The notes under the pieces are model-generated. The model was not told the origin of the DNA. It saw nothing but the letters and a program-made list of their open reading frames with translations, and searched no databases. A DNA stretch of 64,000 nucleotides, taken from positions 33,802 through 97,801 of the forward strand of contig CAZJVP010000076.1 of the NCBI GenBank assembly GCA_964549615.1. The letters run 5' to 3'. Source of the stretch: an uncultured Thermococci archaeon (GTDB lineage Archaea; CAYQAE01; CAYVLA01). Position 1 is the stretch's first letter, and each line of letters opens with the position of its first letter. Of this stretch, positions 18,481 through 45,988 are shown one piece after another. Both the position numbers and the translations under genes were made by a program.

Positions 18481-19608
18481 CTAGAGGCACATCCCGATTC
18501 TCATGTTCTCCAACTCGCCCTCATCAACGGTGATTCCCAGCCCGGGGCGATCCGGGACGTCGACATGCGCGCCCTCGACCCTGATGCCATCCGCTAGGAG
18601 GGTCGACAAAAACTGCGGCCCGTTCGTGTCGACGGGCAGCGCCATCGGGAGCGTGGAGAAGACGTGCACAGACGCTGCTAGCCCCACGCCGGTCTCCGTC
18701 ATGCCGCTGCCCAGGACCTGGATGCCTGCCGACTCGGCGAGGGTGGCGATCTTCTGCGTCCCCAGTATCCCGGACTTGGCGATCTTCAGCACAACCATGT
18801 CGCCCGCATTCATCGTTATGACCCTCAACATGTCGTAATGGGTGAAGACCGACTCATCGACGGCGATGGGGATCGAGCTTATGGCTGATGTCCTCTGGAG
18901 GCCCAAGTAGTCGTAGGTTGGCACCGGCTGCTCGAGACAGACGATGTTCGCAAGGTCGCCTATGAGGGCCAGGAGCCGTCGCAAGGTCGAAGCGTCGTAC
19001 GCCTGGTTAGCATCTGCCCAGATCCGCGCCTTCCCCGCTGCTTCCGAGAGGCATCTCAGTCTATCCGCATCGAGATCCGGCTTGCCCGATATTTTGATCT
19101 TGAAGCAGGTGTACCCCTTCCTCCTTGCCGACCTTGCGCGCCTGGCAAGCGCCTCGACATCACCTGACACCATGTAGCACAGCTCAAGCTTGTCGGTGAG
19201 GCGGCCTCCCAAGATCCTGTGGAGAGGAAGGCCGGATTCCTTGCCGAGGATGTCGAAGAGCGCCTGCTCGACCGCGGATACTGCGAAAGGCTGGCTTGCG
19301 CTGACGGAAGGCGTAATCGAGGAATCGATCTTTGACCTGATCGACCTAACGGAGGAGCAGTCCTCGCGCAGGAGGATCGGCGCGATGTGGTTCTTGAGGG
19401 TCGAGCAGACAGTCTCCATCGTCTCGTAGCTCCAGGTGGGGTTTGGCCTTGACTCGCCCCAACCGGTCTCGCCGTCGGAGGTGGTGAGCTTCAGGTAGAC
19501 GTGCTGCCCAGGCTTGCCGGGCCCGCCCACGAATCCGCGCGAAAGGAGAAAGGGCTCGCGAAACGGTATCTCGACGGGGAAGATCTCGACGCTCGTGATC
19601 TTTGTCAT
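18481..19608 (-). CDS. Mandelate racemase/muconate lactonizing enzyme family (MLE subgroup)
   Basis: GWGE, FKIKI (KxK), DANQ, EQP, DES, LKIAKSG. Confidence 0.9.
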   Translation of the reverse strand: MTKITSVEIFPVEIPFREPFLLSRGFVGGPGKPGQHVYLKLTTSDGETGWGESRPNPTWSYETMETVCSTLKNHIAPILLREDCSSVRSIRSKIDSSITPSVSASQPFAVSAVEQALFDILGKESGLPLHRILGGRLTDKLELCYMVSGDVEALARRARSARRKGYTCFKIKISGKPDLDADRLRCLSEAAGKARIWADANQAYDASTLRRLLALIGDLANIVCLEQPVPTYDYLGLQRTSAISSIPIAVDESVFTHYDMLRVITMNAGDMVVLKIAKSGILGTQKIATLAESAGIQVLGSGMTETGVGLAASVHVFSTLPMALPVDTNGPQFLSTLLADGIRVEGAHVDVPDRPGLGITVDEGELENMRIGMCL

Positions 19609-19668
19609 GGGCCCTCTTGGATCGGAAGAGTTCTGAAAAGTATTTCCCGAGGTCGTCGTGGGAACGGA

Positions 19669-19686
19669 GGGAAAAAAGAAAGAGGA
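19669..19686 (-). terminator. T-rich putative terminator after the FG-GAP gene
   Basis: Minus strand reads CCTCTTTCTTTTTTCC shortly after the stop codon. Confidence 0.4.
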
Positions 19687-19699
19687 GATATGAGGGGTT

Positions 19700-21172
19700 C
19701 TACCGCGCGATCTTGCGGGTGGCTGCAAGGAGCCCGAATGCTGCTAGGGGCAGGATGGCGCCCTCGATTATGGGGATCACTGCCACGTTGCCCATGGTGT
19801 TGTAGCCTCTCGGCCAGATCATGTTGTTCGCGTTGTACGCCCCGCCCGCCGTGAAGCAGTAGACGACGGTATCCTCGGAGCAGACGAACGCCCACTCGAC
19901 CTTGCCGTCGCCATCGAAGTCTCCCATTATCTGCTTGACATCGCCCGGGCCCCACAACGGCGCACCGACCGTGGGGTCCACTGGTATGTTCGGGTTAACC
20001 CAGAGTTGGTCCCATGCGTACTCGATGCTACCCTTCGAGTCTATCGAGAAGATCAGCGTCGTCGCCCTGCCGCCGACAACGTCCATCTTTCCGTCGCCGG
20101 TGAAGTCACCGATCAGCGAGGTGAAGGCGATCGCTGGGGCCGTCCACTTCTTCTTTCCATTGTAGTCCAGACAGTAGAGGTGAAGGGCCAGACCTGTTGG
20201 TCCGATGCCCACGTCAGAGACGAAGACCTCAAGGAACCCATCGCCATCGATGTCCCCGATGGACGGGCTCTCCGAAGCCCAGCCCGTCATCGCGGCGGTG
20301 GGGTCCAGGCTGAAAGTCCATTTCTCGGTTCCAAAGAAAGTAAGGCAGTATAGCTTGAGCTCGTCTGGCACCATAACTAGGATCTCGTACTCGCCGTCCT
20401 TGTCGATGTCGCCAACCGCTGCGGTCGATTGCCCGGGCTTGTTGCCGAAATTGAAGCGCCATTTCTCAACCCCGGAGCTGGTCAAGCAGTAGATCATCTT
20501 TCCGTTCTGGCACGGGATCAGGATCTCAACCTCGCCGTCCTTGTCGACGTCCCATGCGGTGGGCCCACTGTTCGTGCCTTCAGCCATCTGGAACCTCCAC
20601 TTCTCGCGGCCGTCGTGGCTGAGGACGTAGAGCCAGCCAACGCCCCCTGTTGCGAAGATTACCTCCTTCTTGCCGTCACCATCGATGTCAAAGATCGTCG
20701 GGCTGTTGTCCGAGCCTGCCTCAGGGGTGAACTGCCACTTGAGCTGGGGCCTGCCCCCGATAACGTTGAAACAGTGCACCCAGTTGTTCCTGCCTATGGC
20801 GACAACCTCGAGCTTCCCGTCGCCGTCCAAGTCATCTATCGCCGGGACACACATTGGGTCGCCAGGAAGGTTGTCCTTGTCGGGCGGGGGATAGATCCAC
20901 TGGATCGCACCCGTCTTCCCGCTCAGGCAGACCAGCCTGTCGGTCATCTGCTGGAGGCCCTTTCTCCTGCAGAGGAGGATATCAACCGTTCCGTCGCCGT
21001 CGATGTCAGCGTAGTTCATCCCACCGAGAACGCTCTCGTACAGGCCCGTCTGGGCTGTCACGTTCGAAGCCCATTTTAGTGTGAGGCGCTTCTGCGCGTA
21101 TGCGCTTGTCGCTAGAGACACTGCGGCTAGAACCACAACTAGAGAGTACTTGAGGGCCGTTTTCACGCCCAC
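19700..21172 (-). CDS. Secreted FG-GAP/VCBS-repeat beta-propeller protein with C-terminal membrane anchor
   Basis: Signal peptide; about 8 DxDGDGxxE(D) repeats; hydrophobic C-terminus followed by RKIAR. Confidence 0.88.
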   Translation of the reverse strand: MGVKTALKYSLVVVLAAVSLATSAYAQKRLTLKWASNVTAQTGLYESVLGGMNYADIDGDGTVDILLCRRKGLQQMTDRLVCLSGKTGAIQWIYPPPDKDNLPGDPMCVPAIDDLDGDGKLEVVAIGRNNWVHCFNVIGGRPQLKWQFTPEAGSDNSPTIFDIDGDGKKEVIFATGGVGWLYVLSHDGREKWRFQMAEGTNSGPTAWDVDKDGEVEILIPCQNGKMIYCLTSSGVEKWRFNFGNKPGQSTAAVGDIDKDGEYEILVMVPDELKLYCLTFFGTEKWTFSLDPTAAMTGWASESPSIGDIDGDGFLEVFVSDVGIGPTGLALHLYCLDYNGKKKWTAPAIAFTSLIGDFTGDGKMDVVGGRATTLIFSIDSKGSIEYAWDQLWVNPNIPVDPTVGAPLWGPGDVKQIMGDFDGDGKVEWAFVCSEDTVVYCFTAGGAYNANNMIWPRGYNTMGNVAVIPIIEGAILPLAAFGLLAATRKIAR

Positions 21173-23287: not shown

Positions 23288-23857
23288 CTAGATGACCGTG
23301 GTCTCTCCGCATTTCTGACAGACGACCTTGGATCCGCGGCTGACCTTTTTTGCCTGTTGCACATCGAGAATCCGATTGCCGCATCTGCAGACGTAGCCGG
23401 CTAGCCGCGCGGGGTTCCCGACGACTAGGGCATGCGGCGGAACGTCGCGGGTGATCACGGATCCAGCCCCAGCCATGGAGTATTCCCCAACGGTCACGCC
23501 GCAGATCACCGTGCAGTTGGCACCGATGGATGCGCCCCGCTTCACCAACGTCGGCACTATCACCCATTGCCGCGAAAAGGCCCTTGGGTACTTGTCGTTA
23601 GTGAAGACGACATGGGGCCCGATGAACACGTCGTCCTCAACGGTGACGCCCCTGAAGATCGATGCCCTGTTTTCGATCTTAACCCCGCTGCCGATGCGCA
23701 CATCGGCGTCCACGTAGGCGCACTTGCCCAGTATGCAGTTCCGCCCGATGACGGCACCCTCGCGCACCTGCGCGTGGTGCCAGATCTTGGTCCCCTCCCC
23801 GATCTTTGCCTTCTCGGATACGACGGCAGTCGGGTGGGCAAAATAGGGTTCACTCAA
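23288..23857 (-). CDS. Hexapeptide-repeat N-acyltransferase (WbpD-like) with Zn-ribbon tail
   Basis: HPTAVV..KIGEGTKIWH, VFTNDKYPR, VVGNPAR, CRCG...CQKCG. Confidence 0.9.
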   Translation of the reverse strand: MSEPYFAHPTAVVSEKAKIGEGTKIWHHAQVREGAVIGRNCILGKCAYVDADVRIGSGVKIENRASIFRGVTVEDDVFIGPHVVFTNDKYPRAFSRQWVIVPTLVKRGASIGANCTVICGVTVGEYSMAGAGSVITRDVPPHALVVGNPARLAGYVCRCGNRILDVQQAKKVSRGSKVVCQKCGETTVI

Positions 23858-24693
23858 GCCAAAGCCTCCCGAGAAGCGGCCTTGAAAGCTGCCTCAGCAT
23901 CCTCGCCCTGATGCACGATCCGTCTCAGCGCGCGAGCCAGCAAGGCCGGATACCTGTCCAAGAGGAGATTGCGACCGATGACAAGGCCGGAGCCCCCGTC
24001 GCAGATGGCATCGTGGCTGCGCTCCAGGAAGTCCTTGACGGACACCTTCTTTCCACCAAGCACGAGCACCCGGGCATTGACCGACCGTACGATATCCCGG
24101 AAGCTCCTCCGGCGCGATGACCTTGACCGCCCGTCCGGATACGGGATCTTCAAGGCCGGCACGGAGAAGTCGGCCGCCACTATTGCAGCATAGCGTATCC
24201 TATCCGGGCGGGAGTCGACCTTCAGCTTTCCGCCGACCCGGACGCAGTAAAGCGGCTCCAGGACGAGGGGTAGGTCCCATTTCTCACAGACCTCGCAGAT
24301 CTCGCCGCACATCTCAAGTTGGCGAGAGGTTTCCGGGCTCGTCGGATCGATCCTGAGCAAGAGCTTTGCCCCGTCCAGACCCCAGCGGACGGCCGTCTGA
24401 GGTCGTGCGACAAGCCTGTCGTCCCATTCGAATGCAGACTGGGAAAGCCCGGTGCGGTTGAGGGAAAGCAGTAGCGCCTTCCGAGGTAGTTCCTTGGGCC
24501 ATGAGGTTATCAGGTGGCGCATCGGCTCCTTGGTGGCGATCAGCCCATCTGCGAAGGGCAGGACGGAGAAGAGCGTCGAGGCTAAGCGCGAGAAGTCGGT
24601 CAGGCCTTCTTGGACGCCCCGCTGGCGATGGTCCGCGGCAACTATCAGCGTCCTGCCGTCGGTCCCGAAGATCCTAGACATGCGGTTGACCAT
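23854..24693 (-). CDS. Class I aldolase-like TIM barrel (Cgl0159-like)
   Basis: IVAADHRQRG, SLNRTGL..FEWDDR, GAKLLLRID, LKIPY, LGG, IGRN. Confidence 0.75.
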   Translation of the reverse strand: MVNRMSRIFGTDGRTLIVAADHRQRGVQEGLTDFSRLASTLFSVLPFADGLIATKEPMRHLITSWPKELPRKALLLSLNRTGLSQSAFEWDDRLVARPQTAVRWGLDGAKLLLRIDPTSPETSRQLEMCGEICEVCEKWDLPLVLEPLYCVRVGGKLKVDSRPDRIRYAAIVAADFSVPALKIPYPDGRSRSSRRRSFRDIVRSVNARVLVLGGKKVSVKDFLERSHDAICDGGSGLVIGRNLLLDRYPALLARALRRIVHQGEDAEAAFKAASREALA

Positions 24694-24738: not shown

Positions 24739-26331
24739 TCACGTCTCAAGGTTTCTGGATTCTCCGTAGAGCTCGTAGAAGTCCGGATAGATCGTCGCCA
24801 TCTTCTCGTAGACGGCTTTGAAGAGCGCGTATCCCTTCCTGTAGACGGCTGCATTCCTTGGGTCCGGATTCACCGTTTGCTTCTTCGGCAGCCACGAGTG
24901 GATGGCTTCTGGCCTGACCTCCTTCACGCCCACGGCACCGATCAGCGCGTCCCCGTACGGCGTGCCTGGGAACTCGGCCATGAAATCAATGCTCGTCTCC
25001 AGCACGTCCGCTAGGATGGATCTCCAGACCGGGGACTTGCTCCCACCGTCCACGAGGAGGGTGGGTTTGTCGAGGGTAACGCCCGACTGGACGGCCTGCT
25101 CCACGTTCCACTTGTGAAGGTAAGCCGCCCCCTCCAGCACGGACCTGTAGATGGCTCCCGTGTCGTGAAGGTGTCTGAGGCCGAAGAAACCTCCGGTCGC
25201 AGCCGTGTTCCAGATCGGCGTTCTCTCGCCCATGAGGAAGGGATGGAAGATGATCCCAAGGCTGCCCGGTGGGACCTTTGCAGCCAACTCGTCGAGCTCC
25301 TTGGGCTTCAGGCGTCCGCCGAGGTTCGTCCGGAACCACGGATCGACCGCGCCGCCGGGGTAGGCACCGCCGCCAAAGGAGTAGATGAGGTCCCTTGATC
25401 TCACGGCGTGCGGGTAGTTGATCAGCCTCTTGGCGAAGGATGCCTTTGCAGGGTCCTGAAGGATGCCCCAGCACCAGCTGGTTCCAGTCATCAGGCCGTT
25501 GAACCCGGACTCCACGCCACCAGTGGCCACGAGCGAGACTGGCGCATCTATCCCGCTCGCCACAACCGGGGTCCCTGGACGGACGCCGATGGCCTTGGCA
25601 GCCTCCGGCAAGACCTCGCCGACGACCTCGTCCGAGGAAACCAGCTCGCCGAAGATCTCGGGGTGAAGGTCGATGTCCTTGAACTCGGCTGACACCCTCT
25701 TGCGAGCCGATCTCGTGAGCATGGATAGGACCTCCTCGGATATCTTGTACTTCCGTATGTCGAAGACCCCTGCGAAGTTGCCCATCGAGCAGTAGTCGGT
25801 GACGACCCTCCCGGTGAGCTTCTCGATGACGTAGCCATTCGGGGTGACGAGGTGCTTGGTCTTCTTGAAGAGACGCGGCTCGTTGACCATGAACCAGAAC
25901 ATCTTAGTGTAACCGTAGTAGGAGTGGATGGTGTAGTTCCCGGAGACCCCGCCGAACACCTCCTCGCCTATCTCCTCCCTGAGGATGTCGCACTCCCGGA
26001 AGGCCCTTTGGTCCAACCATATCATGCACGGCCTTATGGGCCTCATCTCCGCGTCGACCGGGATGCCCGATCCGCCGTAGAGCCCGGAGAAGCATACGGC
26101 GCCGATGTCCTTGGGGTCGAGGCGGGACTTCTTGATCGCTTGTGTGGATGTGGACTTGACGGCCTCCCACCATGGGTCTGGCCATTGCTCGGCCCCGTTT
26201 GGGTGCTCCTTTGGAACCGTGAATCCCGGCTTGTAGTCCACGGAGCTTTCAGCCACTATTCTGCCCGATCCAACATCGACGATGATGGTCTTTGTGCTCC
26301 CGGTGCCGATGTCACCCGCAAGGACGAACAT
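24739..26331 (-). CDS. FGGY-family carbohydrate kinase (xylulokinase-like)
   Basis: DIGTGSTK, WLDQRA, SGID, GTSW, PFLMGERTPIWN, VLEG, GGSKSPVW. Start reset to ATG 26331. Confidence 0.92.
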   Translation of the reverse strand: MFVLAGDIGTGSTKTIIVDVGSGRIVAESSVDYKPGFTVPKEHPNGAEQWPDPWWEAVKSTSTQAIKKSRLDPKDIGAVCFSGLYGGSGIPVDAEMRPIRPCMIWLDQRAFRECDILREEIGEEVFGGVSGNYTIHSYYGYTKMFWFMVNEPRLFKKTKHLVTPNGYVIEKLTGRVVTDYCSMGNFAGVFDIRKYKISEEVLSMLTRSARKRVSAEFKDIDLHPEIFGELVSSDEVVGEVLPEAAKAIGVRPGTPVVASGIDAPVSLVATGGVESGFNGLMTGTSWCWGILQDPAKASFAKRLINYPHAVRSRDLIYSFGGGAYPGGAVDPWFRTNLGGRLKPKELDELAAKVPPGSLGIIFHPFLMGERTPIWNTAATGGFFGLRHLHDTGAIYRSVLEGAAYLHKWNVEQAVQSGVTLDKPTLLVDGGSKSPVWRSILADVLETSIDFMAEFPGTPYGDALIGAVGVKEVRPEAIHSWLPKKQTVNPDPRNAAVYRKGYALFKAVYEKMATIYPDFYELYGESRNLET

Positions 26332-26670
26332 TTCGCACCCACCCGGCGGTAAGGACGTTTTGAACTCCAAAGACGGGATAAAAGTCTTTCTCGGTGCGTC
26401 TGGCAGCGTGGAAACTCCCTTCCGCGTGCACCGAGGTCCATCCGCCACCGTGCGGGCGATTATGTTTCGCTGGAGCTCCTTGCCCTCTGGCCGTTGCAGG
26501 CGGACCTTGGAGTTCAGCGCGGAGCCTTCGACGGCTGGCTGCGAGTCTCCCGGCGTTCAGGGGGACCTGCGTCCGGAGTCCCTCACGGCACGTGCAGCGC
26601 CCCATTCGCCCATCACGGACCAGGACAAGCTAAGAGTTAAGAGAAACTCCTGCAGGAGGCGGGGCGGTCG

Positions 26671-27468
26671 ATGGATTTGTCCTCCCAGATGGGAAAGGAG
26701 ATTCGCCTGTCCAAGTTCCTGGACCCGTCGGGCCGTGCGGCGATCGTTGTGAAGGCCGATCAGGGTCTTGCGCTGGGGCCAGTGCCCGGGTTGGAGGAAA
26801 TGGCGTCTGGCCTCGGGGCAATCGTCTCGGCCGGGGTCGACGCCGTCATCCTCAGCCCGGGCCAGGCTGCGAAGCAGGCCCATCTCTTCAAGGGAAGGCG
26901 GGCGCCCGCGCTCCTTGTTAGGTCAGACTGGTCAAACGTCGCAAGAACCCAGTCCTTCCCTCTGCCCTGGAAAAGGATGACCCACGTGGCGGTCGCTGGG
27001 GCAAAGCATGCCGCGTTCCTCGGAGCGCATGGGTTAGTTGCCAGCTTCTACGTCGGATACAAGGATGACGAGGATGAGGCGGACAACCTTCAGTCCGTCT
27101 CACAGCTGGCTGCCGAGTGCTTACAGTACGGCCTCCCGCTTCTGGTGGAGGCGCTGCCTCTTGGCGAGCGCATCACGGAGCAGAACTACCTTGACTCGCT
27201 CAAGATGGCCGGAAGGATGTCGCTCGAGGTCGGGGCGGACGGGATCATCGTGCCGTATGCAGGATCGGAGCGCTCGATGCGCGATGTTGTGGAAGCTGCC
27301 GGAGCCGCGCCGGTGCTTCTTTTGCTTTCTGGCGTGAAGGATGGAGAGGGGATCTCGGAGTCGGTGAGGGCCGGGGTCAAGGGGGTCGTGATCGAGGCCA
27401 CGGGGCTAGGGGAAGACGTAGGACCCTCGATCGCGGGCCTCTCGCGGCTTCTCGGCCGGGGTGGGTAG
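26671..27468 (+). CDS. DhnA-type class I aldolase paralog, apparently catalytically degenerate
   Basis: Strongly similar to the next gene (GKEIRLS, SPGQAA, FKGR..PA.LVR.DW.N) but has GADGIIVPY in place of GADAIKAPY. Confidence 0.8.
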   Translation: MDLSSQMGKEIRLSKFLDPSGRAAIVVKADQGLALGPVPGLEEMASGLGAIVSAGVDAVILSPGQAAKQAHLFKGRRAPALLVRSDWSNVARTQSFPLPWKRMTHVAVAGAKHAAFLGAHGLVASFYVGYKDDEDEADNLQSVSQLAAECLQYGLPLLVEALPLGERITEQNYLDSLKMAGRMSLEVGADGIIVPYAGSERSMRDVVEAAGAAPVLLLLSGVKDGEGISESVRAGVKGVVIEATGLGEDVGPSIAGLSRLLGRGG

Positions 27469-27470
27469 AC

Positions 27471-28703
27471 TTGATGACCGGTCCGGGGAAGGAGATACGG
27501 CTCAGCAGGATCATCGATCCCGGCGACGGCCGCGCGGTCGTGATCGCGGCTGACCATGGCTACATGCTGGGTCCCATAAGCGGGGTGGTGGATCTTGCGA
27601 AGACCATCGAGTCCGTTGCGGGAGGCGGCGCGGACGGCATACTGGTGAGCCCCGGCCAGGCGGCCCGGATAGGGTACCTGTTCAAAGGCAGGGATCGGCC
27701 AGCGATGCTTGTGAGAGCGGATTGGACTAACGCCTTCAGGACGAAGACCTACACCCTTCCGTCAAGGCACGTGCAGCACAGGTACATGACCTCGCCCAGC
27801 GAGGCACTTGCGTTGGGGGCAGACGCCATCGTGATATACTTCTTCGTCGGCTATGCGGATGACAGGGAGGAAGCCGAGCATGTGTCAAGGGTCGCCAGAT
27901 ATGCGAGGGAGTGCGAGGAGATCGGGCTCCCCCTGATAGTTGAGCCGATCCCGCTGGGCGAAAGGATAACCGGCGCCAACTACAATGAACTGGTTGGGAT
28001 ATCTATCAGGATGTCTGCTGAGATAGGGGCAGATGCCATAAAGGCACCCTACACGAACGATGTGGAGATGTACAGGGAGATCGTAAGATCGGCTGGGATT
28101 CCGATCCTTATCCTCGGAGGGGCCAAGTCCAAGACCCTGAGGGATGCCCTCGAGGTGGTGGAGGAGGCGCTGGAGTCGGGCGCCTGCGGTACAGTTTTCG
28201 GCCGGAACGTCGTGCAGGCCCCGGACCCTGGGGACATGGTGAGGAGGATATGCCAGGTCGTTCACGGTGGCAAGTCTGCGAGGGAGGTTACACGGCCGGT
28301 GGCCGTCGGGCCGATGAGGTTGAAGGTCTCTCGCCCGCAAGATTGCACGGGCTGTCGGATGTGCGAGATTGCGTGCAGCGCAGCGCATGGACCAGGGTAC
28401 GACCTGGAGTCGGCGAGGCTGATCGTGCGCGCAACCAGCGATGGCTTTAGGCCAACGGTGTGCACCCAGTGTCTGAAGTGCCTGGAGGCCTGTCCGAGCA
28501 AAGCTCTTTCCGTCGACGAGAGGCTGGGCTTCGTGGCTTTGGACGCCTCCAGATGCGACGGCTGCGGGCTGTGCGCCCAGGCCTGTCCGGTGGGAGTGAT
28601 CAGGATGCGGGAGGGCAGGCCGCTATTGTGCGACCTCTGCGGGGGCATTCCCGAGTGCGAAGAGTGGTGCCCGAGGCAGGTCCTCAGCTCGGCGGGTGGG
28701 TGA
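27471..28703 (+). CDS. DhnA-type class I aldolase fused to a 4x[4Fe-4S] electron-transfer domain
   Basis: AADHG, ADAIKAPY, ILGG, FGRN; C-terminal CTGCRMCEIAC, CTQCLKCLEACP, CDGCGLCAQACP, CDLCGGIPECEEWCP. Confidence 0.88.
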   Translation: MMTGPGKEIRLSRIIDPGDGRAVVIAADHGYMLGPISGVVDLAKTIESVAGGGADGILVSPGQAARIGYLFKGRDRPAMLVRADWTNAFRTKTYTLPSRHVQHRYMTSPSEALALGADAIVIYFFVGYADDREEAEHVSRVARYARECEEIGLPLIVEPIPLGERITGANYNELVGISIRMSAEIGADAIKAPYTNDVEMYREIVRSAGIPILILGGAKSKTLRDALEVVEEALESGACGTVFGRNVVQAPDPGDMVRRICQVVHGGKSAREVTRPVAVGPMRLKVSRPQDCTGCRMCEIACSAAHGPGYDLESARLIVRATSDGFRPTVCTQCLKCLEACPSKALSVDERLGFVALDASRCDGCGLCAQACPVGVIRMREGRPLLCDLCGGIPECEEWCPRQVLSSAGG

Positions 28704-30556
28704 TGGTTATGCCGAACGACTGGTATGGCTTCATGGGCCGGTTGCTTGAGGCCGACCTTTCGAAGGGATCGTTTTCCCAACGCGAACTGGATCCCAGGGT
28801 GACGCGGTTGCTGCTTGGAGGAAAAGGCCTGGGGGCCTACCTGCTGTACAATGGCCTGAAGCCCAAGACCGACCCGCTTTCGCCCGACAACATGATCCTC
28901 TTTCTGACCGGCCCGCTCACCGGGACGATCGCGCCCGGAAGCAATCGGTTCTGCGTCGTCACCAAGAGCCCCCACACGGGAACATTCCTGGACTCCCACT
29001 GTGGAGGTTCATTCGGACCGGCCTTGAAGTACGCTGGCTACGATGGCTTGATCGTCACCGGGAGGGCCGAGCAGCCATCCGTGTTGGTCGTTGACGGTGG
29101 CGGGCCGAGATTGATGCCCGCCGGCGAGCTTTGGGGGACGACCACAGCGGCGTGCCAAGACAAGCTTGACCGCCTGCTTGGGGAAGGATACGGAAAGGTC
29201 GTCATAGGTCCTGCGGGTGAGCGGCTCTCGACCATAGCCGGGGTCTACAGCGGGACGCGCGCGGCCGGGAGGGGCGGAGCGGGAGCCGTGATGGGATCCA
29301 AGAACCTCAAGGCCATCTGCGTGAGGGCTGGCTCTTACACCATACGTGTGGCCGATCCGGCCGAGATGAGGAGGGCGTGCTGGACGGCCCACCGCATGGT
29401 TCGAATGAGCGAGATCACGGTTCGTAGCCTGCCGATGGAGGGGACCTGCAACATACTGGAAACGGTGAACCAGGCGGGTGCCTTGCCAACTCGCAACTTT
29501 CAGACGGGCAGGTTTGAGTCGTCCGAGGCCTTGTCGGGCGCTAGATGGAGGGAGGAGGTGTGGATCCGCGACTCGGCCTGCTTCGGGTGCTCGATCGCGT
29601 GCAGCAAGATCTCCCGGATTCGGGAAGGGAGGTTCAGCGGCGATTCCACGGAGGGTCCTGACTACGAGACCGTCTGGGCCTTCGGGCCGCAGTGCGGAAA
29701 CTCCGACAAATCCTTGATAGTCCATTTGGAGAAGCTTTGCGACGACTACGGCATCGACACGATAAGCGCCGGGAACATCATCGGCTTCGTCATGGAGATG
29801 TACGAGCGGGGGATGATTCGGCCCGAGGAGATCGGCGGGATGAGGCCGTCCTGGGGCGATGCGGAGGCGATGGTGGGGATGGTCGAAGCCATGGGGAGGA
29901 TGGACGAGCTGGGCTCGATGCTTTCGAGGGGGGTAAAGAGGCTCAGCGAGGAACACCCGGGTTCGGGCGCCTTTGCGATGCACGTCAAGGGCCTCGAGTT
30001 GCCCGCCTATGCTCCGAGGGCATCCAAGGGCATGGCGCTTGCCTACGCCACGTCGGATCGGGGCGGATGCCACCTGAGGGGATACCCGGCAATGCAGGAG
30101 CTCTTGGGCATGCGGGGCGGGGCCGATCCCTTGGAGACCAAAGGCAAGGCACAGCTGGTCATCGACAGCCAGGACGAGATCGCGGTCGTCGATTCCTGCG
30201 ACATCTGCCTCTTCGGCACCTTCGGCTTCACCCTCAGGGAGATCTACCGGATGGTGAACGCGGCGACCGGGTACGGTTTTAGGAACGCAGCTGACCTCAA
30301 GGTGCTTGGGGAGCGGGTGTTCAACCTCACCAGGCTCTTCAATCAGAGGGAGGGCTTCGCCCGGAAGGATGACACGCTGCCGAAGCGGTGCTTGGAGGAG
30401 CCGATGCCGGACGGTCCGGGGAGGGGGCACGTCGTGGAACTCGACGTCATGCTGAACGAGTACTATTCGATCAGGGGCTGGGACGAGAACGGGATTCCGA
30501 CGAGAGCGACGATCGAGCGTCTAGGGCTGGGTCCCATCGTCGACGGGGACTTGTGA
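28703..30556 (+). CDS. Tungsten-containing aldehyde:ferredoxin oxidoreductase family protein
   Basis: GRGGAGAVMGSKNLKAI, CFGCSIAC, DDYGIDTI, HVKGLELPAY, RGGCHL. TGATG overlap with the upstream stop. Confidence 0.95.
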   Translation: MVMPNDWYGFMGRLLEADLSKGSFSQRELDPRVTRLLLGGKGLGAYLLYNGLKPKTDPLSPDNMILFLTGPLTGTIAPGSNRFCVVTKSPHTGTFLDSHCGGSFGPALKYAGYDGLIVTGRAEQPSVLVVDGGGPRLMPAGELWGTTTAACQDKLDRLLGEGYGKVVIGPAGERLSTIAGVYSGTRAAGRGGAGAVMGSKNLKAICVRAGSYTIRVADPAEMRRACWTAHRMVRMSEITVRSLPMEGTCNILETVNQAGALPTRNFQTGRFESSEALSGARWREEVWIRDSACFGCSIACSKISRIREGRFSGDSTEGPDYETVWAFGPQCGNSDKSLIVHLEKLCDDYGIDTISAGNIIGFVMEMYERGMIRPEEIGGMRPSWGDAEAMVGMVEAMGRMDELGSMLSRGVKRLSEEHPGSGAFAMHVKGLELPAYAPRASKGMALAYATSDRGGCHLRGYPAMQELLGMRGGADPLETKGKAQLVIDSQDEIAVVDSCDICLFGTFGFTLREIYRMVNAATGYGFRNAADLKVLGERVFNLTRLFNQREGFARKDDTLPKRCLEEPMPDGPGRGHVVELDVMLNEYYSIRGWDENGIPTRATIERLGLGPIVDGDL

Positions 30557-30679
30557 GACGGGTGCCTGTCCGGCGCCAACGACGGTCCAGGGAATCGAAG
30601 AAATCTTTCTGCCGGCCGGTCTGCGCGGCAGGTTCAGCAAAATTCTGCCAGAAATGCCCAAAATGAAGGCCGATTGTGG

Positions 30680-30789: not shown

Positions 30790-31500
30790 TTGATGGCGAA
30801 GGCTTCTGAGAGGTTGGAAACGGGCGTCGAGGGTCTGGACGCGCTCTTGTCCGGGGGATACCCTGACCATTCGACGATTTTGGTGAGCGGGTACCCAGGC
30901 ACGGGGAAGACGCTCCTTGGCAGCCACTTTTTGGATGCTGGCATGAGAAAGGGATCCGCGGGCATCTACGTGAGCTTTGAGGCCTCCAAATCCGAGTTCT
31001 TCGAACAGAGCGCAAAGTTCGGTTTTCGCTTTGAGGAAATGGAGGAGAAGGGCCTTTTCAAATGCCTCATGGCAATCCCCCACAGGTTCTTCGTCTCCCC
31101 CAGTACCTTTGATATCCAGAACACGGTCCAGGGCATAGAGGAGGCGAAGGCCGCGGTGAACGCCGAACGCCTCGTCATAGACTCGATCTCAGCCCTCATG
31201 GTGCTGTTCGAGACGGCCTACCAGGCAAGGAAGAGCCTATATATACTGAACTCGAGGCTGAAGGAGATGGGAATGACCTCGATATTCATATCGGAGGCCG
31301 GGCCGCGAAGCGAGTTCAGCAATTTTGGAGTCGAGGAATACATAGCCGACGGGGTCATCCATCTGTCGTTGGAGGAGGTTCAGGAGAGGAAGTTCCAGAG
31401 ATTCCTCCGCGTCGTGAAGATGAGGCGCACCGCGCACAAGATGGAGAAGTATCCCATCCAGATAGGCTCGAGGGGCTTGGAGGTCCTGGTGAAGGAGTAG
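30790..31500 (+). CDS. Single-domain KaiC/RAD55-family ATPase
   Basis: TGVEGLD.LL.GG, GYPGTGKT, LVIDSI, EEYIADGVI, VVKMRRT.H. Confidence 0.92.
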   Translation: MMAKASERLETGVEGLDALLSGGYPDHSTILVSGYPGTGKTLLGSHFLDAGMRKGSAGIYVSFEASKSEFFEQSAKFGFRFEEMEEKGLFKCLMAIPHRFFVSPSTFDIQNTVQGIEEAKAAVNAERLVIDSISALMVLFETAYQARKSLYILNSRLKEMGMTSIFISEAGPRSEFSNFGVEEYIADGVIHLSLEEVQERKFQRFLRVVKMRRTAHKMEKYPIQIGSRGLEVLVKE

Positions 31501-32433: not shown

Positions 32434-33825
32434 ATGTCGGTTCTCATCCCCGACGAGATCCCAGAAGTTCTCAAGAAGACCAAGGGATACTCGCTCCTAG
32501 TCAAGGGAGGACCCGGCATAGGGAAATCGACCCTCGCACTCACGCTAATGGTGGAGAAGGCGAACGTGAACGGCTTCTACGTCTCGACCAGGGTGAAGCC
32601 CGACAAACTGTACGAACAGTTTCCTTGGGCACGAAAGTACGTCAAGGCGGACAACATAATCGATGCTACCGAGCTTCTGTCCGGCATTCGCTCGGAGGGA
32701 TCGGCCCTCGACTCGGGTGAGTCGGCCGGCGATTTCCAGTTCCTCAAGGACATCAAGACCAAGGTCGAGGGCCTGAAAGACCCCACCGTAATAATAGACA
32801 CATGGGATGCCGTCCATGCCTCGCTTGGGGATCGGGCAGTGGAGACGGAGAAACAGCTCACCGACTGGCCTCGCCAGAAGAACCTGACCCTAGTCCTTGT
32901 CAGCGAGTTCATGGACACCAGGGTGCTTGAGTTCCTTGTCGACGGCGTCGTGACGCTTTCCGACTCTGAAATCGACGGCAGGAGGGTGAGGGAGGTCAGG
33001 CTCGACAAGCTTCGGGAGTGCGAGATCAAGAACCTGAAGTACGTCTACACGCTCAAGAACGGGATATTTCGAAGGTTTCCGCCGCTGCGGATCAAGCCGC
33101 CCGACGAGCCAAAGCCTTGGATCCCATTCTCGGACGAGAAATGTCCGTTCTACAGCGGGGCTCCAGAGCTGGATGAGGCAGTTGGAGAGAGCTTGAAGGG
33201 CGGATGCATCATGATCGAGATCTGCAACAACGTTCCCTACGAGTGGGCCAACCTCCTGATCCGTCCCTTCGTGCTCAACTTCATCGCGAAGGACAGAGGG
33301 GTCATAATGGTGCCGCCCAGCGAGCTAGCCCCCGAGCAGATCAGGCGTGATCTGACCAAGTACATCCCAGAGAAGAAGTTCGAGACCTACGTCACCATAT
33401 TTGCCGATAGCCTGAACGAAAACTCCCTGCCCTACGTCCTGAACAACTGGGGCAAGTCCGAGGAGGAGGACGAGAAGATCTGGCTCCAGGTCGAGGAGCA
33501 AAAGAGGAGCGAGAGCTGGGGGCATCTGCTTCGGGTAATGAATGCCGACCGCCTCGAGCAAACCCTTGGCGTCCCGAGGACCGTCCGCAAGTGCGCCCAG
33601 GCAATATCCAGGGGCAAGCTTGGCGGCGATTTGACCATCATCACGCTCAGGCCGACGATGGATGCGACCAGGCAGCTGAGGAACATGTCCGACCTCTACC
33701 TGAAGATGATCGAGCGTTTCGGTGCGTGCTATGTCTACGGCGAGATGCCAAGGACCGGCCTTTACAACGTTGCCGCGGACAACTCCCGCGGCTTTCCGGT
33801 CCCAGAACTAACGCCGGTGGTCTAG
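32434..33825 (+). CDS. GvpD-like P-loop ATPase (RecA/KaiC superfamily, degenerate second domain)
   Basis: LLVKGGPGIGKSTL, YVSTRV, IIDTWDA, FLVDGVV, LDKLR; C-terminal GFP...LTPVV. Confidence 0.8.
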   Translation: MSVLIPDEIPEVLKKTKGYSLLVKGGPGIGKSTLALTLMVEKANVNGFYVSTRVKPDKLYEQFPWARKYVKADNIIDATELLSGIRSEGSALDSGESAGDFQFLKDIKTKVEGLKDPTVIIDTWDAVHASLGDRAVETEKQLTDWPRQKNLTLVLVSEFMDTRVLEFLVDGVVTLSDSEIDGRRVREVRLDKLRECEIKNLKYVYTLKNGIFRRFPPLRIKPPDEPKPWIPFSDEKCPFYSGAPELDEAVGESLKGGCIMIEICNNVPYEWANLLIRPFVLNFIAKDRGVIMVPPSELAPEQIRRDLTKYIPEKKFETYVTIFADSLNENSLPYVLNNWGKSEEEDEKIWLQVEEQKRSESWGHLLRVMNADRLEQTLGVPRTVRKCAQAISRGKLGGDLTIITLRPTMDATRQLRNMSDLYLKMIERFGACYVYGEMPRTGLYNVAADNSRGFPVPELTPVV

Positions 33826-35498: not shown

Positions 35499-35553
35499 TT
35501 GAACCCAGCCTCAACAGCCAACGCTATTATTGCCGAAACCGGATGGAGACGAG

Positions 35554-38500
35554 ATGAACCTGAGGTCCGCATTCGCGCTCGTCGGAATCGCGTTCAATCT
35601 GTCTGCCCTGCTCGCCGGTTTGCCGATCCTCGGGACCCTCGCTCAGCAGGACGACGTCTATCCCCCCACGATCAACCTCATAACCAGATTCCCGGTCATC
35701 ACTTTTGAAGGCGTTAAGGTCACGATAGAGGCGGACATAATCGACTCCAGCGGCGTCCAATCCGCGACGATCGCCTATCGGGTCGACGGAACGGATTACC
35801 TGGCCCCCATGGTTCTCAAGGCGAACTACAGGTACGAGTGGACCTACCTGAACAACGACATCGGCTCCAGGTCGGAGTTAGTCGTGCTCATCCTCAACAT
35901 CACCGCGGTTGACGTATACTCAAACAAGGGGACCCAGACCTACGTTAACACGACCATCACCGTTCTGAAGGAGGACGCGGAGGGGCCGGAGATACAGCTC
36001 GAAGCGATGCCCCTCTACACCGAGAGCGAGGATCACCTGATAATAAGGGCCTCAGTGACCGATCCAAGCGATGTAGGGTCCGTAGTCCTATACTACGACA
36101 AGGCCGGCATGTGGTTTGAGAGGACCATGACGTACAACCCGGACAACGAGCTGTACGAGGCAATCATCGGCCCATTCGAGACCGACACCGCGGTGCGCTA
36201 TTACGTGAACGCAACCGATGCCTCAAAGAATCGCAACGAGGCATCGACCCTCCAGGCCGACAATGGGACGATGCGTTCTTTTGTCATCTCCTACAGAATG
36301 AGGTTCGAGGGAGGCGTGGATGACTCGAACTACCTGCAGGTGGAACAGCTTCACCGTTACAGGATGACGAAGTCGAGGGACACCATAACCTACGCCGGCT
36401 ATGTGTTCAACCTGGAGCTAAGCGACTCGGGGCTCCTCACCGGTCAGGTATCCCTAAACTCGAGCGGCAAGACCGTCGTTCTAAAGAGCCTGTCGCTTGT
36501 CGAGAAAAACAACGAACTCATCACAGATATGCAGACCAAGGACGGCATAGCCTACGACTTCAACCTGAAGTATCTCTCATACCGCCCCGAGGGCCCGTAT
36601 GCCGAGATCGAGATCAACCCAAGGCAGCGGCTCGTTTTCGAGGGCTACACGATCTACACCTACATCAAGAAGGTGACCGCAGGTGACTGGACTTTCATCG
36701 GCCAAGACGGGGGAAAGTGGCAGGTGAACGTGACCGCGTCCTTGGGCTACTCCAGCGTCACCCGAACGTTCACAGCCCGCAACCAGTTCAAGGAGTTCTT
36801 CGTCGGCGGAAGGAGGGATGTCCAGATCATCTACCTCGGAGAGGAACTAGTTCCGGGAGATCTGATAAGGTATCGTGCCCGCCTCCGGGTCTACAAGTTC
36901 CAGCAGCCCATCTTCGACGTGAAGAACGATGTGCCGACGGGCAGTCCGTCCGGCTTGTCGCCTGGGCAGATCATCTACAACGTCTACGCGGGGGACATCC
37001 TAGTCCAGAAGGTCATCGCGCAGAACCTCGCGGGATCCAGGGCCTATGACATCAACATCCAGGTCACCAACATCACCGGATACGGTTTGGCCGTGAGCCC
37101 GGGGGAACTCACCGCATCCCTCGGTCCAGTTTACAGGGAGAAGACCGTGGGAAACAAGACGGTAAGATACTACCTGACCTACGGCACGCTGACCAGATCA
37201 TTCAACCTCGCGTTCCCCAGGAACGTGCAAGTCCGGGAATCTGCAAGATTTGACGTGCTTCTGACCTATCGGGACGCCCATGCAGAGTCCCACCAGATCC
37301 GGATCCCCGTCCAGTTCCTGATCTACCCATCGCCCCCCGTCCTTCGGGTGACAAAGGGACTGTCGAGGGAGGAGCTTCCCATCGGCCACCCCGCGGCGGC
37401 ATGGATAGAGATAGAAAACACTGGTGGATCCCCCGCGCTCAACGTGACCGTCATTGACAACACCCCGCCCAACCTGATATCCGACTTTGAGACTTGGCGG
37501 GGCGAGATCAAACCCGGCTCCTCCAACAAGGTGTATCTGATGTACTCCCTCAAGGCCACCACGATCACGGTCCCCGGGAGGACGTCATACGGCTTCGTGA
37601 CCGTCGATTGGAAGGGCGTTTGCTACAAGGCCGGCGTGCGCAACGACGCCTATACGCTCTCCACTGACGACTTCTTCTTCACCGCCCTGGGCCCCCATCT
37701 GGCGTTCATACAGTTCACGGCCGATAGACCAATAGTGGATCAGGGTGGCCAGCAGATGATCTTCATCAACCTGGGCGAGAAGGTCACCGTGACGGCCACC
37801 GTCAAGAACGACGGCAATAGAATTGCAAAGAACATGTCCTTGAGCTTCCCGGGCTTCGTGATCGAAAGCACGAACTTCCCGACCGGGACCGACCTTGAGG
37901 ATGGCATGTATGTACAGTTCAGCGCGACCATCGTGGCGGCGAGCGAGGGCACATACCCGTTCCAGGCCATGGTCACCCATTACGACGAGAACCCAGTCCT
38001 TGGCAACGTGTACCGGGCGCTCTCGCACCTCATAATGGCCCAGACCTACCGCTCACCGGTCATGGTGCAGTTCATAGACCCCCCTAGGCAGATATCAGCC
38101 GGGGAGACCGAGACCATCAGCCTTTCCATCAGAAACATCGGCAACAGCCCGGTTGAGAACGCGCGCGTCCTGCTCAGCCTCAGCAGGGGGCTGGAGCTGG
38201 TCTACGGGACGTATCTCATCTGGGAGGGGCGGCTGGGTCCAAACCAAAATGAGCTCAAGACCATCCAGATCAAAGGAAAGGAGTTCGGTCCGAACAAGAT
38301 AGTTGCAACAGCGTCTGGCCGGGACATCCCGGACGTGGACTACGAGCTTCCCGTCGAAGTCCTATCTCCCCATATAGAGATACTGAGAACCATTGACTGC
38401 GAGTACCTGTTGGCAAGGCCCGACTACTGGCCCAGGAGCTCCGAGATCGCAAGCAGGGTCACCCTCACGCTGAGGAACGTTGGAAACGATCTCGCCCTGA

Positions 38501-41500
38501 GGGTCGTCGTCAAGGAACGATTGCCGGCCGGGCTGATCACGTTCGAGAACCTGACCCTTGGCTCCGATCTGATCGTGTGGGGCGAGATGGGGGACATATC
38601 CCTGGCCCCCAACGAGTCGATTGCCCTTCAGTACCCGGTCTGGGCGCGAAACCCCGGGCACTACTTCTACGCGCCGGCCGTGGTCACGTACACCAACCCA
38701 ATCCACACCCGGTACGAATCAACATCCAATACCTTGGATGTCTGGGCCCTCTCCAGCAGGCCGTTCCTGGTGGACGATGGCCCGGTGCTTGTGCTGGGCT
38801 CGGACGGCGCGCCGCTGTCGGGCCCGGTTTCGTACAACGATACGGTGACATTCGTGGTCAAGATCAAGAACATAGGCAACCAGAACGCAACCGCCCTCCA
38901 GATGGGCCAATGGCTCGGCGAGGGCGTCCCCGATATCAAGTGCATAGTCCTCAACCAGGTGTATGTTAGGGAGGCACTGGAAAGTGGGATCCGGCCCGAG
39001 TCGGTCCTGTCGCTCCCGATCAAGGTCCTGGTTCTGGAGGATGTGCCATCGGTAGCCTCCTTTGCGCTCAGGTTTCCTTTGAGCTACAGGGACTCCCAAG
39101 GAAGGTCTTATGCGAGCGTCTTTTCCTCCCAGCTTGAGGTAAGGCCAACACAGGTAGGTGTCTCGTTCAAGAAGTCCTTCGTGCGTTCCTATGTTGGACC
39201 GGGCGAACGGCCGCAGTTGCGCATCGAGATCACAAACGTCGGGGACACCGATCTGAGTTCGGTCCGGGCCATCGTCGAGGTTCCCGGTGGCCTGTCGATT
39301 GCAAGCTCGCCCGTGCTGGACTTACTGAGGGAGTCCGAGAAGGCTACGATCGTTGTGGAGTTCCAGGCCGTGAGCCTTCCCCCCGGAGAGGTCTACGTCT
39401 CGTTCAGAGGATTCGTAGCGTCTGTGGAGTACATGTGCTTCCGGGGCAGGAGGTCCACGCCTGAGGATGGCATATTCTTGGATCTTTCGGTTGTCAGACC
39501 CTACATCGAGGTCACAAGGTCGGCAACCTCTCAGGTGCTTCTGGCCAGGAGCGAGGAGTGGCCGTTCTCGCCCTTGATCCACGAGAACGTGACGCTAACG
39601 CTCAGAAACACGGCCGAGATCGAGGCCAGGGGGGTCACGGTGACCGAGAACATTCCTGATGGGCTGTACACCCTCCAATCGCTCGGGACGAGCCAGATAG
39701 TCTGGGGAAAGGACGGCAAGCTGAACCTTGGGAAGGGCGAGACGGTGAGCTTCACATACCCAGTCTGGTCCTTCGCTGAGGCGACATCCAACTTCGAACC
39801 GGCCGTGGTCACATACTCTGATCCGGCCGGCCACAGGTTCCAGTCCTACTCGACGGGAGTCGAGAAGCTCGTGAGCGTGGCTAACAGGCCGTACATCGTC
39901 TGGGAGGGCGGGATCGTCCAGGATCCAGCCGGGTCCGTGACGTACAACGACACCCTGGAGCTGCGCATGTCCGTGAGGAACGTTGGCAACAGCAGGTCCA
40001 CGGGCCTTGTTCTCACCGGTTGGACCGACGGGAAACCCTCCCACCCTGGATGGGAGCTCTTGAACTCAGGCGAGCTTAGCAAGCTGCTCTCCAACGGCAT
40101 TGCTCCGGGTTCGGTCTTGGAATTCGCGCTCAGGTTGAGAGTACTGAAAGACGTCAGAAGGCCGGAGGAGGCCAAGCTCCCCCTGGAGCTTTGGTACGGC
40201 GATGAGATGTCAAGGACCTACTCAAGGGAGGCGGTGGCCGAGGTTCTCGTCCGGCCGCCCGCGATCTCGATCTCGGCTGGCCTAGTCAACGGCCGCTTCG
40301 TCGTGATGCCCCGACAGCCTGGCTTCCTGAATCTGAGCGTCTCCAACGCCGGCGACACCGACCTCACGAACGTGGCGTTCAGGGTGGAGTGTCCGGACGG
40401 CGTCTCGGTGGCCTCGGCGGACAACCTGGATGTTCTGGCCGAAGGTGGATCCCGCGACATGTCCATAGTCTTCGGAGGCATCGAGCTCGGAGAGAAGATC
40501 GGAAGGAACTACGACAAGATCAACGTCAGCATATCATACGCCGACTTCAGGGGGGAGCAGCACACGATGAAGATCGGGGTTTTCAACCTGACCGTGAAGA
40601 GGCCGATGCTAACCGTCAGGACGTTTGAAGCAAGGTCCAAGACCAGGCTCGGCGGAAAGTACGGGTTCTCGCTCGTTCTGGGCAACGACGGCACGTTCGA
40701 GGCGAGCAGCCTACGGATACTGCTGGGCGATATGGTCACTTGGCTGGGCGACATCGCGGTGGCGGGAGGGATCCTGGACGGCGACCGGGTGATGGTCACC
40801 GAGAACCTGTCCGCGCTGAACGAGCTCCAAGTCCAGGTCAAGGGAAAGGTCCAACAGAAGGGTCGCTTCGTATTCTCGCCGGTTGCGATCTACAGCGACG
40901 CAGCGGGAAACGAGTATAGGTTGGAGTTGGAGGCGGTCCAGGTCAGAATCGGGGAGAAGATCTTCAAGACGATCCTGCCGTTCCTTCTATGGGCCGCGGC
41001 CGGCGCTGCCATCGTGGGCATCTACTATTACGAGACCAGGATAGCCGAGAAGATAAAGGGCCACCAGCTCGGATCGCTCGCCAACTCGGTGATCACCCAC
41101 GTCGACGCAACACGGACGGTGCCGCCGCTCATACCTTTCAGGAAGAAGAAGCTGAGCCTGGCCGAGTTCGCCTACCTCTTGTCGCTGTACCTTGCCAAGG
41201 TCAAGGCGACCAATCCCAAGAGGGCGGACAGGACCACCTTCATAATAACGCATCCGCAGTCCCGTCTGGTGCCTGGACAGGAGTTCAAGAACCTGGCTGT
41301 GGTGAGGGACGCCTACCTTCTGCTCGCCGACATGATCCAGAATAGGGTCAAGAGCTCGCAGACCGTACCCCCGACCTTCCTGGTGCAGGGCTTCAAATTC
41401 GGCCTCTCGGATGTCGTCTACATGCTCTCGTTGGCGGTCTCCCGCGCCAGGTCCGACGGACAGTTGCCGAAAAGCGTAACGATTCCGGCATCGACTCGGA

Positions 41501-42011: not shown

Positions 42012-42069
42012 GCTTGCGCGATAGCTCTCGCAAAGGCGAGTTCGGTATGCCCGGTTAGGGTGAGGCGGA

Positions 42070-44998: not shown

Positions 44999-45009
44999 GG
45001 GGTGAGCGA

Positions 45010-45975: not shown

Positions 45976-45988
45976 GGGGAGGGTCGCC

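Follow-up and report, generated by a model that had tools for sequence, protein, structure and literature searches.

An aldolase fused to the iron-sulphur subunit of an aldehyde oxidoreductase in a conserved three-gene module of uncultured archaea and bacteria

The stretch of DNA analysed here (the window; 64,000 nucleotides) comes from an uncultured Thermococci archaeon and covers positions 33,802 to 97,801 of contig CAZJVP010000076.1 in assembly GCA_964549615.1. It carries a module of three genes, namely an aldolase-like gene (gene A), a gene in which an aldolase domain is fused in frame to an iron-sulphur (Fe-S) domain (gene B), and a gene for the large subunit of an aldehyde oxidoreductase (AOR). 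The three genes strictly co-occur and are co-inherited in archaea and bacteria. The module is a real and widely conserved variant of the two-subunit tungsten-type aldehyde oxidoreductases, it is apparently undescribed, and its sequences allow a plausible function to be proposed.

The three genes and their products

Three open reading frames are found on the + strand between 26671 and 30556 (Table 1). A preliminary description of this DNA had seen two genes there, an aldolase/Fe-S fusion and a gene of the AOR family. The fusion is real, but the first ~800 bases (26671-27468) are a gene of their own, and the conserved dead paralog encoded by it, which is the third component of the module, had been missed. 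Gene B starts either at ATG 27474, 5 nucleotides past the stop codon of gene A, or at TTG 27471. Its stop codon (TGA, 28701-28703) has one base in common with the ATG of the AOR gene at 28703, which bears out the TGATG coupling described before; GTG 28700 is a second possible start of the AOR gene.

Table 1. Features of the module and of its immediate surroundings in the window
Feature	Position	Strand	Remarks
Gene A	26671..27468	+	265 amino acids; own TAG stop; frame differs from that of gene B; PF01791
Gene B	27474..28703	+	409 amino acids; aldolase domain followed by AOR-type small-subunit Fe-S domain
Gene B, aldolase domain	27474..28298	+	residues 1-275
Gene B, Fe-S domain	28329..28700	+	residues ~286-409; four Cys motifs
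AOR gene	28703..30556	+	617 amino acids; AFOR_N + AFOR_C large subunit
Divergent intergenic region, FGGY kinase gene / gene A	26449..26670	.	222 nucleotides
FGGY-family sugar kinase	24739..26448	-	FGGY_N + FGGY_C (Pfam); true start possibly further in
Third DhnA-family gene (Cgl0159-like)	23854..24693	-	lysine kept ('PALKIPYP'), GGKK, GRN

The N-terminal domain of gene B is, judged by homology, a class I aldolase barrel of the DhnA type. Pfam assigns residues 23-249 to PF01791 (DeoC/LacD; E 7e-34), and the closest PDB sequences are the ADH synthase MJ0400 (2qjg, E 1e-43), the fructose-1,6-bisphosphate (FBP) aldolase of T. tenax (1ojx, E 2.5e-25) and LsrF of E. coli (3gkf, E 3e-19). Foldseek comparison of the AlphaFold model (pLDDT 87.2, pTM 0.80) gave TM-scores of 0.89, 0.85 and 0.80 to the same three proteins. 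As in these enzymes, a TIM barrel is combined with a Schiff-base lysine, the Asp of a DHG motif and a GG...GRN site. The residues present are Asp27-His28-Gly29, Glu157, Lys190 (codon 28041-28043), GGAK at 215-218 and GRN at 243-245, and in alignments with MJ0400, T. tenax FBP aldolase and LsrF it is Lys190, on the 'GAD-x-x-K' strand, that falls on their Schiff-base lysine. Across 37 copies of gene B, Asp27, His28, GG and Arg244 are each found in all 37, and Lys190 in 35. The aldolase had been called intact, which is correct for Lys190, Asp27, His28, GGAK and GRN, but not for the canonical catalytic Tyr, which is replaced by Ile159.

The C-terminal part of gene B (residues ~285-405) is matched by many 4Fe-4S models of Pfam. 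It has 16 cysteines, arranged as C291/294/297/301, C330/333/336/340, C361/364/367/371 and C386/389/395/399, which are enough for a predicted content of four [4Fe-4S] clusters. Fifteen of the 16 are invariant among 19 sequences, the remaining one, C333, being misaligned in two rows with an insert. The best PDB matches are the small subunit of WOR5 (6x6u_B and 6x1o_B; E 3.7e-21 for 6x6u_B) and then AorA (8c0z_C, E 9.7e-17), with further matches to the tungsten-containing oxidoreductase (WOR) of A. mobile (9mqx_E, E 1.7e-15) and to BamC (4z3w_E). Both the small-subunit character of this domain and its in-frame fusion to the aldolase had been proposed, and both stand: PF01791 at residues 23-249 and the four Cys motifs lie in one frame. 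Gene B begins with the aldolase domain and has no signal peptide.

The AOR gene contains AFOR_N (PF02730, 3.9e-69) and AFOR_C (PF01314, 8.4e-134). Its closest PDB entry is Pyrococcus AOR (1aor, 482 bits), then 9g7j, 9mqx_D (467 bits) and 8c0z_A (407 bits), and FOR, WOR5 (247 bits) and BamB gave lower scores. In the alignment to 1aor the cluster ligands CxxCxxxC...C are kept, as are the equivalents of Thr243, Glu313, Tyr427 and His448, the catalytic residues listed for the P. furiosus enzyme in section 5 of PMC13328260. The motifs that align are 'CfgCsiaC', 'gpdyEtvw', 'lelpaYapr', 'rggCHlrg', 'dscdiClfg' and 'megTcnil'. The enzyme presumably uses tungsten rather than molybdenum.

The source genome has four other AORs. 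One of them (contig C74, 22549-25037) stands beside a stand-alone Fe-S protein of 206 amino acids, which is the plain two-subunit form, and those on contigs C67, C88 and C72 have no Fe-S neighbour.

Gene A is, from its residues, a catalytically dead sister paralog of the aldolase domain of gene B, in which only the fold would have been kept. It is recognised by Pfam (PF01791, DeoC/LacD aldolase, E 9e-19), and its model is a TIM barrel (pLDDT 85.2, pTM 0.87). In the alignment to MJ0400, however, Ile193 takes the position of the Schiff-base lysine, DHG has become DQG, and neither GGxK nor GRN remains; by these marks its product would not be an enzyme of the DhnA-type aldolase kind. The residue count covered 33 rows, one of which is the third aldolase of locus L011, leaving 32 real copies of gene A, and none of the 32 has the lysine. 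Genes A and B have in common a loop, 'SPGQA...(L/I)xRxDW(T/M/S)NxxR...LP', which the canonical DhnA paralogs do not have; its form in gene A is 'RxDW(S/T)N'.

Distribution and descent of the module

In a search of 5.8 billion proteins, 118 of the 120 best clusters were ~400-440 amino acids long and contained both domains. The two exceptions were P0018 (334 amino acids, truncated) and P0071 (281 amino acids, with a scrambled tail typical of a frameshift). The source names among the best clusters included Bathyarchaeia, Brockarchaeota, Thermoproteota, Loki-, Sigyn- and Promethearchaeota, KSB1 and Calditrichaeota. A 50%-identity protein library held five full-length fused representatives together with fragments, and the ESM Atlas two fused clusters with 96 and 87 members; the few of these members whose phylum is known are mostly Chloroflexota, which we regard as a lead only. 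The domain architecture aldolase plus Fer4, for which the preliminary description had suggested a search, is widespread in several phyla.

Genome contigs, two genome sets and metagenome contigs yielded 36 further loci with the full-length fusion, 35 of them distinct since L097 and L119 are identical; this tally leaves out the window and the duplicates L081 (= L019) and L084 (= L002). The hosts are Bathyarchaeia, Hadarchaeota-labelled archaea, Sigynarchaeum, Chloroflexota, Bacteroidota/Ignavibacteriota and KSB1-type bacteria, besides metagenomes. Gene A lies directly upstream of the fusion in 28 of the 29 loci having at least 700 nucleotides upstream, and in the 29th (L003, Sigynarchaeum) it is found past the AOR instead. 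The AOR gene lies directly downstream in all 31 loci having at least 900 nucleotides on that side. A long open reading frame in L097/L119 was considered as an A-B fusion and rejected, as it is an upstream extension of the frame of gene B.

By phylum, the fusion was present in 4 of the 5 species genomes examined from the phylum of the window, in 20 of 401 genomes sampled from that of L002 and in 18 of 167 from that of L004. All 22 and all 19 B-type matches in the latter two sets were in open frames of 379-500 amino acids, i.e. only fused forms and no stand-alone B-type aldolase occurred in the 401 + 167 genomes. Stand-alone proteins of 264-282 amino acids carrying the B-type signature loop and the lysine were found as P0126, P0129, P0130 and P0131, the clusters of the first three being consistently 280-282 amino acids long. 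A metagenome scan with P0126 gave no match above 53% identity.

The preliminary description had named a lost stop codon, or a fusion occurring only once, as what would undo its reading. The fusion is neither an artefact nor a singleton: a few shorter entries (P0071, P0018) and the separate clusters of stand-alone aldolases are what a lost stop or a mis-assembly, with relatives encoding separate proteins, could appeal to, but that explanation is refuted by the comparative data and has practically no chance of being right, given 118 full-length fusions among the 120 best clusters, 36 loci in several phyla, open frames for all B-type matches in the 401 + 167 genomes and 15 of 16 cysteines invariant across 19 sequences. 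A check of the junction on reads had also been proposed. In run X1 a contig of 25,363 letters covers 26600-30600 without a gap and differs in a single letter, this run being possibly the source sample and so not independent; runs X2 and X3 gave short contig pieces only, none of which cleanly bridges the domain junction. No RNA run with the locus was found.

The AOR tree comprised 61 rows, i.e. the window, the 4 other AORs of the source genome and 56 sequences from loci; 7 of 63 tblastn stretches had been dropped for a stop inside, the fusion-linked L001 among them. The 15 fusion-linked AORs form one clade (SH-aLRT 99), apart from 42 AORs adjoining free Fe-S subunits, and its sister is the AOR on C88 of the source genome, which has no Fe-S neighbour. 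The AOR phylogeny that had been called for hence links the fused genes always to one dedicated clade.

The tree of the aldolase barrels had 96 rows. Genes A and B together form one clade (99), apart from the four other DhnA paralogs of the genome and from the third aldolase of the window, and all copies of gene A form one clade within the tree (99). The groupings of A and of B run parallel, with the Hadarchaeota-labelled pair, Bathyarchaeia, Bacteroidota/KSB1 and Chloroflexota recurring in both. P0126 and P0129 branch off basally in the A+B clade, possibly reflecting the state before the fusion; P0130 is nested in the bacterial fused forms. A tree of the Fe-S domain had too few columns, and the fused label takes 2 changes on it. 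Elsewhere the source genome encodes two MJ0400-like aldolases of the canonical kind, which have both Tyr and Lys, so that the module does not represent the housekeeping aldolase.

Genes around the module

Upstream of gene A, the window carries a divergent group consisting of a sugar kinase of the FGGY family, the third DhnA-family gene and a hexapeptide acetyltransferase gene. The kinase is xylulokinase-like and below cut-off (TIGR01312 XylB, 264 bits, cut-off 380), and it is a candidate supplier of sugar phosphate. The third DhnA-family gene falls outside the A+B clade and is, going by its motifs, probably an active aldolase of the kinase operon. The intergenic region is the presumed promoter region of both operons; a scan for bacterial-type promoters and terminators found nothing in 26449..26670, archaeal promoters being outside the range of that scan. 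The closest relative of the window, L011 (Hadarchaeota-labelled, gene B 73% identical), has the same layout, with a kinase of 72% and a third aldolase of 61% identity.

The context of 20 other loci was scanned, with xylose-isomerase-like barrels counted within 7 kb. Such TIM barrels are near the module in 10 of the 20, and FGGY kinases in the window, L011, L002, L095 and L013 (the last by tblastn). In L101 the order is GH38 mannosidase, PfkB kinase, A, B, AOR, a lyxose/mannose-isomerase-like gene and DUF4432; in L007 an alpha-galactosidase is directly upstream of the module, and GHL10, G6PD and 6PGL are near it in L006. Five Chloroflexota-type loci (L009, L015, L016, L018, L098) read LarA-like, A, B, AOR, TauE/SafE permease. 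The link to sugars supposed in the preliminary description is thus upheld by neighbourhoods that are carbohydrate-related, with kinases, isomerases and glycosidases.

A sulfo-sugar as substrate was considered and not adopted, since the hints are weak and lineage-specific: the TauE/SafE exporter directly after the AOR in the five Chloroflexota-type loci, the presence of a sulfatase in L019 and of Ldh_2 in L092, and a TM-score of 0.62 between the fold of B and the sulfofructose-phosphate aldolase YihT. Around the Chloroflexota-type loci there are also pairs of UPF0261 and PEP-hydrolase-like genes, and creatininase-like and GFO/IDH/MocA genes.

Several other features of the window were recorded. 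Directly downstream of the AOR gene are a KaiC-like ATPase (30790-31500), 84% identical in L011 at the same position, and a KaiC/GvpD-like protein (32434-33825). On the - strand at 18481-21172, an enolase-superfamily (MR/MLE) enzyme stands beside an FG-GAP beta-propeller protein with weak carrageenase/rhamnogalacturonan-lyase-like matches, and this pair may be a further route for sugar acids close to the module. A surface- or pilus-like locus occupies 35530-48526 and includes a protein of 2052 amino acids with repeats of the DUF11, CARDB and NPCBM-associated types, an ATPase of the PilB/T2SSE type (42070-44088), two membrane proteins of the T2SSF type (44180-45975) and a Big_1 + TPR protein of 845 amino acids. 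Upstream of CTP synthase there is an integrase of the rve type (8780-9718) that probably belongs to an insertion sequence, and a protein of 798 amino acids (55663-58059) with weak matches to squalene-hopene-cyclase repeats lies downstream of an ABC-2 transporter set.

Known systems, proposed function and alternatives

By all features that can be read from sequence, the module would formally be a Class II WOR (WorL+WorS) as that class is set out in section 19 of PMC13328260, the classification of 2026. The large subunit has both AOR-family domains (PF02730, PF01314), and adjacent to it is a small subunit for four clusters (16 Cys), present here as a domain of a larger protein. Neither a FAD/NAD subunit (Class III) nor WorABC (Class IV) was found beside the module in the window and the 20 loci, and there were no BfuABC-type genes beside it; the window neighbours checked for extra subunits were the kinase, the aldolase, the acetyltransferase and the KaiC-like proteins. 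A Tat signal or membrane anchor on WorS (Class V) is likewise absent, gene B opening with the aldolase domain.

As in WOR5/ASOR of P. furiosus (6x6u, 6x1o) and the GOR of C. bescii, a large subunit of the AOR family adjoins a small subunit with four [4Fe-4S] motifs. Unlike in the Class II WORs, the small subunit of the module begins with a class I aldolase domain of ~275 amino acids, the fixed third gene encodes a dead paralog of the aldolase, and the large subunit is nearer to Pyrococcus AOR than to WOR5. The module also resembles AorABC of Aromatoleum aromaticum (8c0z; large subunit 407 bits, small subunit E 1e-16) and WorABCSL of Acetomicrobium mobile (9mqx, PMC12318220; large subunit 467 bits, small subunit E 1.7e-15), in which small subunits carry electrons from the pterin site along strings of Fe-S clusters. 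Those complexes have FAD/NAD or bifurcating subunits and form filaments, whereas none of these subunits is encoded near the module, and aldolase-like barrels are added. Compared with the DhnA-type aldolases, A and B carry the extra loop 'RxDW(T/M)NxxR...LP', and B is fused to an Fe-S domain.

The preliminary description had called the arrangement undescribed, and no paper describing the module was found in the literature searched. Full-text searches for the combination of aldolase and AOR gave nothing relevant. The word 'aldolase' does not occur in the main text and two supplement files of PMC13328260, the large gene-neighbourhood table being outside this check, and those passages of PMC11291895 in which many Asgard AORs are discussed have no aldolase.

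The general reading that we favour, with moderate confidence, is that the module couples cleavage of a ketose phosphate to ferredoxin-linked oxidation of the aldehyde. A neighbouring kinase would make the ketose phosphate, i.e. the FGGY kinase in the window and PfkB or other kinases elsewhere. Lys190 of B would split it into a phosphorylated three-carbon ketone, similar to dihydroxyacetone phosphate (DHAP), and an aldehyde, and the AOR, as the pterin-containing large subunit of an aldehyde:ferredoxin oxidoreductase docked on the Fe-S domain of B by analogy with WOR5 and AorAB, would oxidise the aldehyde to the acid. Two electrons would then pass from the cluster of the AOR itself through the four clusters of B to ferredoxin. 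The product of gene A would pair with the barrel of B as a non-catalytic structural partner in the oligomer. The substrates are likely to be lineage-specific ketose 1-phosphates, from which glyceraldehyde, glycolaldehyde or lactaldehyde would be released. A physical complex, the role of gene A, the direction of the reaction and any channelling are what we infer from these arrangements.

A bolder version of this scheme is possible, and we hold it only tentatively. A, B and the AOR would form one particle, in which a mixed ring of live and dead barrels has several Fe-S arms, each bearing an AOR. Such a particle would act as an 'oxidative carbon-carbon lyase' converting a ketose 1-phosphate into triose phosphate, a carboxylic acid and reduced ferredoxin, so that no free aldehyde appears and an aldol cleavage which would else be unfavourable is pulled forward.

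Several observations weigh against the coupling of cleavage and oxidation. Ile159 of B occupies the position of the catalytic Tyr of T. tenax FBP aldolase and MJ0400 ('wsYprg', 'mmYprg'), and each of the 37 fused copies has I, V, L or M there; the Tyr is also absent from LsrF. The score of B is under every NCBIfam cut-off, with 202 against 241 for the subfamily model of ADH synthase, 175 against 299 for ADH synthase, 141 against 430 for archaeal FBP aldolase Ia and 107 against 297 for LsrF. The chemistry of B may thus be different from textbook aldol cleavage. The B copies of L090 and L091, each part of a second copy of the module (in genomes G014 and G012, of the class of L002), have Glu for Lys190 ('GADFLEIPYT') and Thr for Glu157. 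They keep Asp-His, GGxK and GRQ in an intact A-B-AOR unit, and may be a neofunctionalised or non-catalytic version; given these copies, the barrel of B may be of value apart from Schiff-base catalysis. Stand-alone B-type aldolases exist (the P0126, P0129 and P0130 clusters). The feeder genes vary by lineage around a constant core, with no single feeder pathway conserved, and many of the counted neighbours, although within 7 kb, are not clearly in the same operon. The nearness of the AOR clade to the broad-specificity Pyrococcus AOR gives no clue to the aldehyde. Finally, a search of the genome for the tungstate-binding WtpA (TIGR03730) was negative, which does not decide the metal.

In the likeliest of the alternatives, the barrels mainly assemble several units of small and large subunit into a larger electron-conducting particle, the AOR takes free aldehydes of the cell, and aldol catalysis is secondary or vestigial. 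DhnA-type aldolases are oligomers. Gene A is dead and yet conserved in 32 of 32 copies, two B copies without the lysine remain in intact units, and the loop common to A and B is conserved independently of catalysis. In the solved relatives 8c0z and 9mqx (for the latter, PMC12318220), small and large subunits are joined into nanowire-like chains. Against this, 35 of the 37 B copies retain the lysine, and all 37 retain Asp-His, GG and Arg244 of the phosphate site, which would be unexpected for a pure scaffold across archaea and bacteria; the sugar kinases and isomerases nearby fit a catalytic role as well. We consider a mainly structural role unlikely.

Coupling of cleavage to oxidation could also take a glycolytic form, with B as FBP aldolase and the AOR oxidising glyceraldehyde 3-phosphate (GAP). 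It would then resemble the two-subunit GOR of Caldicellulosiruptor bescii, a tungsten enzyme of Class II for which section 9 of PMC13328260 describes GAP oxidation as part of glycolysis. B keeps the phosphate site and resembles archaeal FBP aldolase. However, the AOR matches the archaeal GAPOR model over 80 residues only, with 54 bits against a cut-off of 1300, and is far closer to Pyrococcus AOR, while B reaches 141 of the 430 needed for archaeal FBP aldolase and lacks the catalytic Tyr. This special case appears improbable.

Running the module in reverse is, in our view, very improbable. The AOR would then reduce an acid with reduced ferredoxin, and B would condense the aldehyde with a DHAP-type donor to an unusual sugar phosphate, e.g. 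by chemistry like that of ADH synthase in archaeal aromatic amino-acid synthesis. The nearest characterised relative of B is indeed the ADH synthase MJ0400 (E 1e-43, TM 0.89), its best NCBIfam match is PRK07226, and AORs are able to reduce acids with low-potential donors, as reported in PMC9295118. Such a biosynthetic direction is opposed by the two canonical MJ0400-like genes that the genome already holds, by the ADH-synthase cut-offs that B does not reach, and by the position of the module beside glycosidases and sugar kinases in Chloroflexota and Bacteroidota-type bacteria.

A physiological role has been defined for only five of the 92 clades into which the tungsten oxidoreductases fall, by the count given in PMC13328260. 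For most AORs the aldehyde met in the cell is not known, and an aldolase welded to the electron-carrying subunit of an AOR provides a substrate hypothesis that can be tested. The arrangement, dead paralog included, has been retained in those phyla of archaea and bacteria that are dominant in anoxic sediments and hot springs. It is a candidate for a step by which uncultured Bathyarchaeia, Chloroflexota and their relatives generate reduced ferredoxin when they ferment sugars. It also offers what would be a natural example of a pseudo-enzyme recruited as the partner of its active twin. If the three proteins do form one particle, this would be the first tungsten enzyme of the AOR clade whose physiological aldehyde source is named by a gene fusion, and it would define a ferredoxin-yielding branch of sugar fermentation common to Bathyarchaeia, Asgard relatives, Chloroflexota and KSB1-type bacteria.

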